Positions 1 through 484 of a stretch of 484 nucleotides of DNA are shown here, piece by piece. The notes below the pieces were generated by a model that saw only the letters and a program-made list of their open reading frames with translations, was not told the DNA's origin and ran no database searches. This DNA comes from Escherichia coli (lineage in GTDB: Bacteria; Pseudomonadota; Gammaproteobacteria; Enterobacterales; Enterobacteriaceae). The DNA lies in the NCBI RefSeq assembly GCF_003334385.1, contig NZ_QOWN01000175.1; one strand, 5' to 3'. The position numbers and the translations under genes are program-made. The first letter of the stretch is position 1; each line of letters starts with the position of its first letter.

Positions 1-5
1 TAACC
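1..5 (-). rRNA. rrl: 23S ribosomal RNA, extreme 5' end (partial, continues beyond window start)
   Basis: Reverse complement of 1..5 is GGTTA, which I recall as the mature 5' end of enterobacterial 23S rRNA (GGUUAAGCGACUAAG...). The preceding spacer (rc ...GAAACATCTTCGGGTTGTGAGGTTA) matches the region recalled just upstream of 23S. The boundary could be off by a few nt; only 5 nt are in the window. Confidence 0.6.
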
Positions 6-66
6 TCACAACCCGAAGATGTTTCTTACGATTCATCATCGTGTTGCGAAAATTTGAGAGACTCAC

Positions 67-84
67 GAACAACTTTCGTTGTTC
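67..84 (-). other. Perfect 7-bp stem with GAAA (GNRA) tetraloop in the spacer transcript
   Basis: Minus-strand RNA reads GAACAAC-GAAA-GTTGTTC; the two arms are exact reverse complements and the loop is a GNRA tetraloop. Seen directly in the sequence; function (pre-rRNA folding or processing) is inferred. Confidence 0.6.
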
Positions 85-112
85 AGTGTTTCAATTTTCA
101 GCTTGATCCAGA

Positions 113-125
113 TTTTTAAAGAGCA
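113..125 (-). promoter_or_regulatory. Spacer boxA-like antitermination element (TGCTCTTTAAAAA)
   Basis: Reverse complement of 113..125 is TGCTCTTTAAAAA, one mismatch from the rrn leader boxA consensus TGCTCTTTAACAA. It sits downstream (in transcript sense) of a hairpin, the expected boxB-boxA order for the rrn spacer antitermination signal bound by the Nus factor complex. Confidence 0.6.
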
Positions 126-134
126 AAACTTCGC

Positions 135-156
135 AGTGAACCTTTGCAGGTACACT
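135..156 (-). promoter_or_regulatory. Putative boxB-like hairpin immediately upstream (transcript sense) of boxA
   Basis: Minus-strand RNA reads AGUGUACC-UGCAAA-GGUUCACU: an 8-position stem with one U.U mismatch and a 6-nt loop, about 9 nt upstream of the boxA-like motif. Assignment as boxB is by position and structure only. Confidence 0.35.
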
Positions 157-188: not shown

Positions 189-264
189 TGGTGGAGCTAT
201 GCGGGATCGAACCGCAGACCTCCTGCGTGCAAAGCAGGCGCTCTCCCAGCTGAGCTATAGCCCC
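189..264 (-). tRNA. tRNA-Ala (anticodon UGC), 76 nt including encoded CCA
   Basis: Reverse complement of 189..264 is GGGGCTATAGCTCAGCTGGGAGAGCGCCTGCTTTGCACGCAGGAGGTCTGCGGTTCGATCCCGCATAGCTCCACCA. It has a 7-bp acceptor stem with the G3.U70 wobble pair (the alanine identity element), a GGTTCGATCC T-arm, and anticodon TGC at window 229..231 (rc). Matches E. coli tRNA-Ala(UGC) as recalled; the identical alaT/alaU/alaV paralogs cannot be told apart from this window. Confidence 0.97.
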
Positions 265-306
265 ATAACATGTAGTTAAAACCTCTTCAAATTTGCCGTG
301 CAAATT
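265..306 (-). other. Spacer between tRNA-Ile and tRNA-Ala (pre-rRNA)
   Basis: A 42-nt interval between the two tRNA genes on the same strand (rc: AATTTGCACGGCAAATTTGAAGAGGTTTTAACTACATGTTAT). Contains a short inverted repeat, AAATTTGCACGGCAAATTT; the tRNAs are expected to be released by RNase P/RNase E-type processing. Confidence 0.85.
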
Positions 307-383
<77 letters not shown>

Positions 384-451
384 GTAGAGGTTTTACTGCT
401 CATTTTCATCAGACAATCTGTGTGAGCACTGCAAAGTACGCTTCTTTAAGG
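384..451 (-). other. Spacer between 16S rRNA 3' end and tRNA-Ile (pre-rRNA)
   Basis: A 68-nt interval (rc: CCTTAAAGAAGCGTACTTTGCAGTGCTCACACAGATTGTCTGATGAAAATGAGCAGTAAAACCTCTAC) directly 3' of the 16S terminus. By established knowledge this flank takes part in the 16S precursor processing stem with the leader, which is outside the window. Confidence 0.85.
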
Positions 452-484
452 TAAGGAGGTGATCCAACCGCAGGTTCCCCTACG
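452..484 (-). rRNA. rrs: 16S ribosomal RNA, 3' terminal 33 nt (partial, continues beyond window end)
   Basis: Reverse complement of 452..484 is CGTAGGGGAACCTGCGGTTGGATCACCTCCTTA, the conserved 16S 3' terminus ending ...GGAUCACCUCCUUA-3'. The anti-Shine-Dalgarno CCUCC corresponds to window 455..459 (ggagg on +). Confidence 0.96.

Follow-up and report, generated by a model that had tools for sequence, protein, structure and literature searches.

A stem-loop under selection in the pre-23S leader of Escherichia coli rrnD, a probable instance of the pre-rRNA leader helices

Introduction

The processing helix of pre-23S rRNA, in which the leader of the precursor pairs with its trailer, was reportedly described by Bram, Young and Steitz in 1980 and by Liiv and Remme in 1998. 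Leader-trailer helices flank 23S in nearly all prokaryotic genomes analysed, while leader-leader helices are variable (PMC11404451). RNase III cleaves at the 23S ends at +7/+3, and rnc mutants keep approximately 100 extra nucleotides at both 23S ends, on functional 50S subunits (PMC8708148); a time-resolved DMS study indicates that the 23S ends pair late (PMC10802402). In the 16S precursor, deletion of the leader helices hA/hB leads to a modest loss of activity along with fidelity defects, and the leader-trailer helix itself is essential (PMC10250234). In the same study, Fredrick and colleagues explicitly urge that pre-23S mutagenesis be revisited (PMC10250234).

A fragment of the pre-23S leader is also known as an RNA in its own right. 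Chinni et al. (2010; PMC2943607) cloned StyR-44, an RNA of 109 nt, from S. Typhi; it lies upstream of 23S in all seven operons and gives a northern signal in both S. Typhi and E. coli, and its discoverers could not rule out a metastable intermediate of maturation (PMC2943607). The same RNA was found again as sYJ118 after tigecycline treatment, where a by-product reading was raised (PMC3511261), and it is strongly increased by carolacton (PMC5615136). Here we describe a hairpin of the E. coli rrnD spacer that falls within both of these contexts.

Results

Identity and layout of the window

The window—the whole stretch of 484 nucleotides that was analysed—is matched at 100% identity along its entire length by E. 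coli K-12-type rrnD, and E. coli genomes likewise match at 100%. In a K-12 derivative, it is located in rrnD between rrsD and rrlD, and among the seven K-12 operons its 135-nt leader is an exact match to rrnD alone. Read as its reverse complement, the window gives the 16S-23S spacer of E. coli K-12 rrnD; its gene layout and the match to rrnD place the rRNA transcript on the minus strand. The principal features are as follows:

1-5, minus strand: first five nucleotides of mature 23S rRNA (GGUUA), the 23S starting at window position 5
64-88, minus strand: extended hairpin of 10 bp, consisting of the 7-bp core, a lower CAC/GUG segment (88-86 with 66-64) and a bulged U85
67-84, minus strand: hairpin core, with 5' arm GAACAAC (84-78), loop GAAA (77-74) and 3' arm GUUGUUC (73-67)
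116-125, minus strand: spacer boxA core (TGCTCTTTAA / UGCUCUUUAA), an antitermination signal, 2 nt upstream of the distal leader-trailer strand described below
189-264, minus strand: tRNA-Ala (ARAGORN)
307-383, minus strand: tRNA-Ile (ARAGORN)
452-484, minus strand: 3' end of 16S rRNA (Rfam)

The identity of the spacer element as boxA is established knowledge (PMC6614801, PMC8632103). The spacer additionally contains a boxB-like hairpin of its own at approximately positions 134-155 of the window, the loop of which is likewise of the GNRA type (GCAA).

The hairpin and its comparative support

A preliminary description of this DNA had placed a perfect 7-bp, GNRA-capped hairpin in the spacer between tRNA-Ala and 23S. 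Its sequence and strand hold up, as a repeat search returned arms of 7 nt at 67-73 and 78-84 that are 100% complementary and 4 nt apart; its location is equally borne out by the tRNA-Ala at 189-264 and the 23S start at 1-5, both on the minus strand. Positions 67-84 read GAACAACTTTCGTTGTTC on the plus strand of the window and GAACAAC GAAA GUUGUUC on the minus strand, the rRNA sense. The predicted free energy of this 18-mer, with seven Watson-Crick pairs and a GNRA tetraloop, is −7.4 kcal/mol (z = −4.8 relative to dinucleotide shuffles), and that of the extended hairpin at 64-88 is −11.4 kcal/mol. The seven core pairs are predicted to form with a probability of at least 0.94 when the hairpin first emerges from the polymerase; the corresponding value is at least 0.99 in all longer nascent prefixes, to 400 nt into 23S, as well as in the leader alone and in the leader together with the trailer.

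Orthologous spacers were collected in one scan of representative genomes, using boxA and the 23S 5' end as anchors. This recovered 64 loci from Escherichia, Enterobacter, Klebsiella, Citrobacter, Superficieibacter, Mangrovibacter, Pseudenterobacter, Dickeya, Edwardsiella, Photorhabdus and Xenorhabdus, from two endosymbionts, and from the Chromatiales genera Rheinheimera and Arsukibacterium; Salmonella is absent from the set, and the species from which StyR-44 takes its name is represented via the Rfam consensus alone. The scan yielded 28 distinct Enterobacterales variants, rising to 33 after a covariance-model search, from approximately 13 genera. All 33 distinct orthologues contain a single hairpin between the conserved GCUGAAAAUUGAAA and GUCUCUC, with stems of 8-15 bp (9-15 bp in the initial 28 variants) and predicted energies of −9 to −17 kcal/mol, and the sequences of these hairpins are largely unrelated.

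Covariation was scored for the 10-pair structure derived from E. coli on a plain MAFFT alignment (A1), which had not been fitted to any structure. In A1, 82% of cells are paired and two-sided changes occur at 9 of the 10 pairs; the covariation score is 0.58, as compared with 0.245 for column shuffles (0 of 500 reaching the observed value), and sliding the registers by 1-3 columns reduces the score to 0.05-0.18. A covariance model built from A1 found 67 places, one copy per rrn operon, and in the resulting model-fitted alignment (A3) 85% of cells are paired, with a score of 0.652 versus 0.242. The preliminary description had proposed covariation across enterobacterial spacers as a check, and for the stem the outcome is strongly positive, with observed scores of 0.58 and 0.652 against a background of approximately 0.24. 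In both alignments, G-U wobbles are frequent in the stem and are compatible with the rRNA sense strand only. The lower stem pairs covary between the Escherichia and Enterobacter types (A-U/G-C and C-G/A-U), and variation extends to the loop-closing pair within E. coli itself, which follows the classical series from C-G in rrnA, B, C, D and E through U.G in rrnH and rrnG to U-A in strain D4, where it appears in all seven operons (a state seen in 2 of 5426 genomes). Judged by these alignments, the stem is under selection as RNA. A literature search, the reach of which ended short of the older spacer-diversity papers in J Bacteriol and J Mol Evol, found no earlier account of compensatory changes in the E. 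coli spacer.

Flanking strands and the leader-trailer structure

The segments on either side of the hairpin, and those between it and 23S, include the following:

6-25, minus strand: leader strand of the proximal leader-trailer (processing) helix, as predicted by co-folds and RNAalifold
29-41, minus strand: second small leader hairpin (CGAUG-AUG-AAUCG region), variable among operons and absent or different in rrnG and many genera
56-62, minus strand: GUCUCUC, directly 3' of the hairpin with A63 unpaired; predicted partner GAGAGA(C) in the trailer
89-93, minus strand: junction nucleotides UGAAA, predicted unpaired, between the distal strand and the hairpin; nearly invariant in Enterobacterales
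94-114, minus strand: leader strand of the distal helix, AAUCUGGAUCAAGCUGAAAAU; predicted partner AUUUUCAGCCUGAUACAGAUU in the 23S-5S spacer, outside the window

When the rrnD leader, from boxA to 23S, is co-folded with the 23S-5S spacer, a continuous leader-trailer structure is predicted. The proximal helix, containing the RNase III site and 23S helix 1, is followed by an internal loop with the variable hairpin, then by GUCUCUC:GAGAGA, then by the hairpin at 64-88 as a leader-only branch, and finally by AAUCUGGAUCAAGCUGAAAAU:AUUUUCAGCCUGAUACAGAUU, which ends 2 nt from boxA. The same layout is predicted in 18 of 18 Enterobacterales operons having both flanks (leader and trailer co-folds from Escherichia, Enterobacter, Klebsiella, Xenorhabdus, Photorhabdus, Dickeya and Edwardsiella), with distal helices of 18-28 bp and proximal helices of 28-37 bp; an analogous branch appears in the co-fold for Arsukibacterium, a member of the Chromatiales.

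RNAalifold, applied to an unfitted MAFFT alignment of leader and trailer (A2), recovered both the distal and the proximal helix. The hairpin was not recovered from A2, in which MAFFT misaligns its variable arms in the longer context, a problem that A1 and A3 solved. In the distal helix, 94.9% of cells are paired and the predicted pair probability exceeds 0.96; several G-U changes are present, along with one compensatory pair (UA:7 / AU:6) among 15, the small number of double-sided changes reflecting the high sequence conservation of both strands. The GUCUCUC strand is invariant in 28 of 28 aligned Enterobacterales variants, and 4-7 of its 7 nucleotides pair with the trailer in co-folds of 18 of 18 operons; the support for GUCUCUC:GAGAGA comes from these per-operon co-folds only, as MAFFT aligns the trailer inconsistently. 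Complementarity between the flanks and the trailer is conserved on both sides of the hairpin, and the near-invariance of the flanking nucleotides (UUGAAAC, GAGUCUCUCAA) goes beyond what pairing alone needs. The two partner segments lie approximately 2 nt apart in the trailer (GAGAGA-AG-AUUUUCAGCCUGAUACAGAUU) and approximately 31 nt apart in the leader.

If these flanks pair as predicted, the hairpin would project as a side branch from a three-way junction within an extended pre-23S leader-trailer structure. For the leader-trailer helix of E. coli 23S, 27 bp is the length usually given (PMC10250234); in view of this usual description, the distal extension might form only fleetingly, or not at all, in the cell. 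The preliminary description had set the hairpin between boxA and the processing stem; its order, downstream of boxA and upstream of 23S, stands, but the hairpin lies inside the leader-trailer structure rather than ahead of it, with both flanks predicted to pair with the trailer. The approximately 100 nt retained in rnc mutants are close in size to the whole of this predicted leader-trailer structure.

Discussion

Proposed role of the hairpin

We think it probable that the hairpin serves as a structural "leader helix" of pre-23S rRNA, compacting the leader so that the leader-trailer helix can form. The stem-loop would fold on its own upon leaving RNA polymerase and then stay folded, until its flanks, AAUCUGGAUCAAGCUGAAAAU and GUCUCUC, could pair with the two near-adjacent segments of the 23S-5S spacer that are made approximately 2.9 kb later. 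A compact hairpin would tuck away approximately 30 extra leader nucleotides and hold the leader strands side by side for zipping by the trailer, and bringing these strands together would lower the cost of closing the three-way junction. Folding may also shield an A/U-rich stretch from nucleases, Rho and mispairing during the tens of seconds that pass until the trailer is transcribed. The role would be carried by the stem and not by its sequence, with the GNRA cap providing a stable, fast-folding closure as opposed to a required recognition element. Upon RNase III cleavage 7 nt upstream of 23S, the hairpin would depart with the leader fragment, detectable as the 109-nt StyR-44.

A role in compaction fits the observation that pairing is selected irrespective of sequence, with variable stem length and with any stable loop tolerated, and it agrees with the findings on the 16S leader and leader-trailer helices (PMC10250234) and with the variability of leader-leader helices (PMC11404451). 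We infer both the formation of the junction in vivo and the compacting and protective role from these comparative and folding data. The earlier suggestion that the hairpin aids co-transcriptional folding or processing of the precursor is plausible.

The GNRA loop

GNRA caps are generally favoured in structured RNAs, and the preliminary description had pointed to the loop as a motif for tertiary contact or protein recognition. It is possible that the loop is the functional part, docking in a helical receptor, such as 23S domain I or the minor groove of the neighbouring leader-trailer helix, or being read by a protein, and thereby organising the junction or early assembly. GNRA loops (GAAA, GAGA, GCAA, GUAA) do recur on five or more stems of unrelated sequence (Escherichia, Pseudenterobacter, Dickeya, an Enterobacteriaceae MAG and Gullanella), far above the approximately 1 in 32 expected by chance for a tetraloop; furthermore, loop variants on the Escherichia-type stem remain GNRA, with GAAA in most Escherichia operons, GAGA in rrnB and GCAA in Mangrovibacter. 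This recurrence hints at some selection on the loop, beyond pure compaction.

However, the loop is not a conserved feature: GNRA is present in 11 of 33 distinct orthologues (in the above lineages, Superficieibacter and Mangrovibacter) and lacking in the other 22. Enterobacter, Klebsiella and Citrobacter, as well as Xenorhabdus, Photorhabdus and Edwardsiella, have non-GNRA loops of 3-6 nt with no common motif, and the Rfam consensus loop at this position is uAAa. In addition, the 8-15 bp range in stem length would displace the loop by over half a turn of the helix. On the orthologue count of 11 in 33, the hairpin does not show the conserved GNRA loop of a tetraloop-receptor module; given the absence of GNRA from six genera, the orthologous sequences do not support an essential tetraloop-receptor or loop-specific protein contact. 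The cap seems to be favoured yet freely replaced, and we regard a functional loop contact as unlikely.

Transcription and antitermination

Another reading is that the hairpin is mainly protective or insulating during transcription, blocking Rho or nucleases or serving as a handle for the antitermination complex. Its location in untranslated, A/U-rich RNA 28 nt beyond boxA and its predicted immediate and stable formation are consistent with such a function, and the antitermination complex is known to hold RNA just 3' of boxA (PMC8632103, PMC6614801). However, boxA alone is reported to be sufficient to recruit antitermination factors (PMC10250234), and reviews of the system list no element of the nut-like site at the position of the hairpin (PMC8632103, PMC6614801). 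The window scan also revealed no features resembling an intrinsic terminator. As a principal function this appears improbable to us, although it overlaps with the proposed leader-helix role rather than excluding it.

Several more familiar identities were considered for the hairpin and set aside. The window scan found neither an intrinsic terminator nor a promoter on either strand; the core stem at 67-84 has G-C in 3 of its 7 pairs and is followed by GUGAGUCUCUC, and so lacks the G+C-rich stem with a direct U tract that an intrinsic terminator would show. The rrn boxB is ruled out by position, as the hairpin (64-88, minus strand) is located 28 nt 3' of boxA (116-125, minus strand). As a substrate helix for RNase III, the stem is too short, at 10 bp including a bulge versus the approximately two helical turns (roughly 20 bp) needed.

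A more elaborate possibility is that, in lineages that retain it, the GNRA loop could dock on the neighbouring leader-trailer helix and lock a defined three-way junction abutting boxA, such that junction formation upon emergence of the trailer would strip or hand over the antitermination or chaperone complex held 3' of boxA and act as a checkpoint for completion of 23S. The footprint of such a checkpoint would be the convergent acquisition of GNRA caps by stems of unrelated sequence and the unusual invariance of the junction nucleotides (UUGAAAC, GAGUCUCUCAA). We hold this to be a speculative proposal with little likelihood of being correct.

StyR-44

The hairpin is no uncharacterised element: it is already catalogued as a helix of a curated Rfam family and is not new. 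The match is located as follows:

13-121, minus strand: Rfam RF01830 (StyR-44), excised leader fragment including the hairpin; 109 nt, 124.9 bits

The covariance-model match of 124.9 bits (gathering score 54, E = 1.5e-21) spans model positions 1-107 of 107, and the hairpin is the central helix of the RF01830 consensus, with all ten pairs of <<<-<<<<<<<____>>>>>>>>>> formed and no non-canonical flags; the consensus loop of this helix is the uAAa referred to above. StyR-44 lies directly upstream of 23S in one copy per operon, and all seven K-12 operons have one. The match starts inside boxA, and its end at window position 13 is separated from 23S by exactly 7 nt. The known RNase III site (−7; PMC8708148) lies between window positions 13 and 12, and the extended hairpin is 51 nt upstream of it. 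Given these ends, StyR-44 is most simply the excised leader fragment.

The outer helix of the RF01830 consensus (GCUGAAAAUU/AAUUUUCGC) presents a different picture from the hairpin that it encloses. In the alignments, 75% of its cells are paired with zero compensatory change, and Photorhabdus, Xenorhabdus, Dickeya and Edwardsiella lack it while keeping its 5' strand invariant. This same 5' strand is used in leader-trailer pairing, with which the outer helix competes; its predicted probability is approximately 0.01 for the leader by itself and falls to 0 once the trailer is included. An outer helix enclosing the hairpin in the precursor was accordingly rejected in favour of leader-trailer pairing, on the grounds of its missing covariation, its loss in four genera and these probabilities, and it probably describes at most the excised fragment or a transient fold.

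These properties also bear on whether StyR-44 might be a genuine trans-acting small RNA, with the hairpin as its stabilising or functional module. Northern blots of both S. Typhi and E. coli show a discrete, growth-regulated RNA of 109 nt (PMC2943607), the RNA was re-found as sYJ118 after tigecycline (PMC3511261) and increases with carolacton (PMC5615136), and the minimum-free-energy fold of isolated StyR-44 includes the outer helix as part of a longer stem that has the hairpin at its apex. However, both its discoverers (PMC2943607) and later authors (PMC3511261) raise readings as a processing intermediate or by-product, and its 3' end coincides with RNase III cleavage at −7. The most obvious candidate for a seed, the sequence of the hairpin, is the least conserved part of the RNA, the outer helix that defines the free RNA has zero covariation and is lost in four genera, and StyR-44 is without a known target. 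We consider a trans-acting function very unlikely.

Lastly, a chance inverted repeat, or a DNA-level palindrome such as a protein-binding site with no RNA role, has next to no probability: although some perfect 7-bp hairpin with a 3-8 nt loop arises in 16% of dinucleotide shuffles of the window (n = 5000), a GNRA-capped one on either strand arises in merely 0.28% of 5000, and, independently of these shuffle figures, the comparative data (covariation at 9 of 10 pairs, G-U tolerated on the rRNA sense strand only, pairing kept while the sequence is unrelated between genera) rule it out, such that on the evidence of the alignments covariation has already refuted this reading.

Comparison with known leader helices

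These data confirm that a small hairpin of the most thoroughly studied rRNA operon is a genuine RNA structure under selection; little else changes. They show that conservation applies to the stem at this position and not to its GNRA loop, and indicate that the precursor probably does not use the RF01830 outer helix. They also set the pre-23S leader beside the pre-16S leader helices as their counterpart; removal of those 16S helices has an effect on ribosome quality.

The hairpin is known in kind, as an instance of a described class, the pre-rRNA leader helices. The closest described entity is RF01830 StyR-44, of which the window contains a member, with the same genomic position and the same 109-nt length. 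The hairpin also resembles the pre-16S leader helices hA/hB (Warner, Bundschuh and Fredrick, 2023; PMC10250234), which are likewise local leader-leader hairpins downstream of boxA. Like the 23S hairpin, hA/hB are tied to a long leader-trailer helix, vary among genera while that helix is kept, and are removed in processing; unlike it, they belong to the 16S leader, to which the 23S hairpin is not homologous, and their deletion phenotypes have been measured. With respect to the pre-23S processing helix (Gemler et al., 2024; PMC11404451), the flanks of the hairpin belong to its leader strand, whereas the hairpin itself takes no part in trailer pairing, and the predicted structure reaches to within 2 nt of boxA as compared with the 27 bp usually given.

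Two further parallels concern stem-loops near boxA. The V3 helix of the cyanobacterial ITS, in which the order is Box-B, Box-A, D4, V3 (PMC5658200), is likewise a variable stem-loop that follows Box-A and a conserved segment and precedes 23S, but it belongs to a different phylum and has no detectable sequence homology, the likeness being one of position only. The boxB of nut-like sites is also a small hairpin near boxA, but in rrn operons it is located upstream of boxA, on the opposite side from the pre-23S leader hairpin described here.

Leader–trailer pairing in pre-23S rRNA

The pre-23S leader–trailer helix is usually quoted as 27 bp long. The structure seems to extend as far as boxA, because the 23S-5S spacer complements a leader strand starting 2 nt past boxA, with 19 of 21 positions matching in E. 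coli, and this complementarity is held across genera by one compensatory pair.

Window 94–114, (−) strand: leader strand, predicted distal pairing; partner at 1044–1064 (−) in the 23S-5S spacer of L001, a locus that includes this spacer and the 16S leader.

The flanks of the GNRA hairpin, at 56–63 and 88–102 (−) (AAGCUGAAAAUUGAAAC and GAGUCUCUCAA), are near-invariant across Enterobacterales, and their trailer partners vary (GAGAGAAG, GAAGAGAC, GAGAGAC). Conservation of the flanks exceeds what pairing alone would be expected to need.

Other complementary segments and hairpins

The spacer boxA region (window 116–138) is also 74% complementary over 23 nt to window 427–449, just past the 16S 3′ end, with a duplex energy of −31.7 kcal/mol. 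This complementarity is probably an echo of the similarity between leader and spacer, since the 16S leader is a far stronger partner for segment 427–449 (−67.5 kcal/mol). Just 5′ of the spacer boxA, a boxB-like hairpin (window ~134–155, (−) strand; AGUG-UA-CCU-GCAA-AGG-UU-CACU in the centroid fold) likewise carries a GNRA loop (GCAA); another small GNRA hairpin, CGUC-GCAA-GACG, adjoins the 16S leader–trailer helix in the L001 16S leader.

On both sides of tRNA-Ile lies a 13-nt inverted repeat (window 277–289 and 383–395; 92% complementary). The minimum-free-energy fold pairs its two arms, closing a stem that encloses tRNA-Ile and the next hairpin; this predicted stem may be a processing stem. 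The interval between tRNA-Ile and tRNA-Ala contains a perfect 9-bp hairpin (window 288–308; transcript CAAAUUUGC-ACG-GCAAAUUUG).

Variation among operons and genomes

Comparison of the K-12 operons (L066–L071) revealed that a small second leader hairpin at 29–41 (−) varies among them (AAUCGUAAG, AAUCGAAAG, GGAUCGCAAG) and that rrnG has a shorter segment in its place; the seven operons therefore include at least four leader variants. In E. coli strain D4 (L072, NZ_CP010143.1), all 7 of 7 rrn operons carry a rare U-A closing pair (GAACAAU GAAA AUUGUUC); among 5426 complete E. coli genomes, just 2 have this pair. Strain D4 illustrates the fixation of a compensatory change by concerted evolution.

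Two loci, L054 (a MAG labelled Oxalobacter) and L059 (labelled uncultured Desulfovibrio), have clearly Escherichia-type 23S leaders, which match those of E. coli K-12 rrnA and rrnC with identity over the 136 nt compared. Because such leaders are implausible for the labelled taxa, these contigs are probably mis-binned or contaminant.

Comparison with the StyR-44 consensus

The Rfam StyR-44 consensus (RF01830) has an outer helix that competes with the trailer pairing.

Window 93–102 and 46–54, (−) strand: outer helix, StyR-44 consensus (GCUGAAAAUU/AAUUUUCGC).

No covariation was found in this outer helix, which is missing from Photorhabdus, Xenorhabdus, Dickeya, and Edwardsiella. The curated StyR-44 structure may be valid for the excised fragment only.
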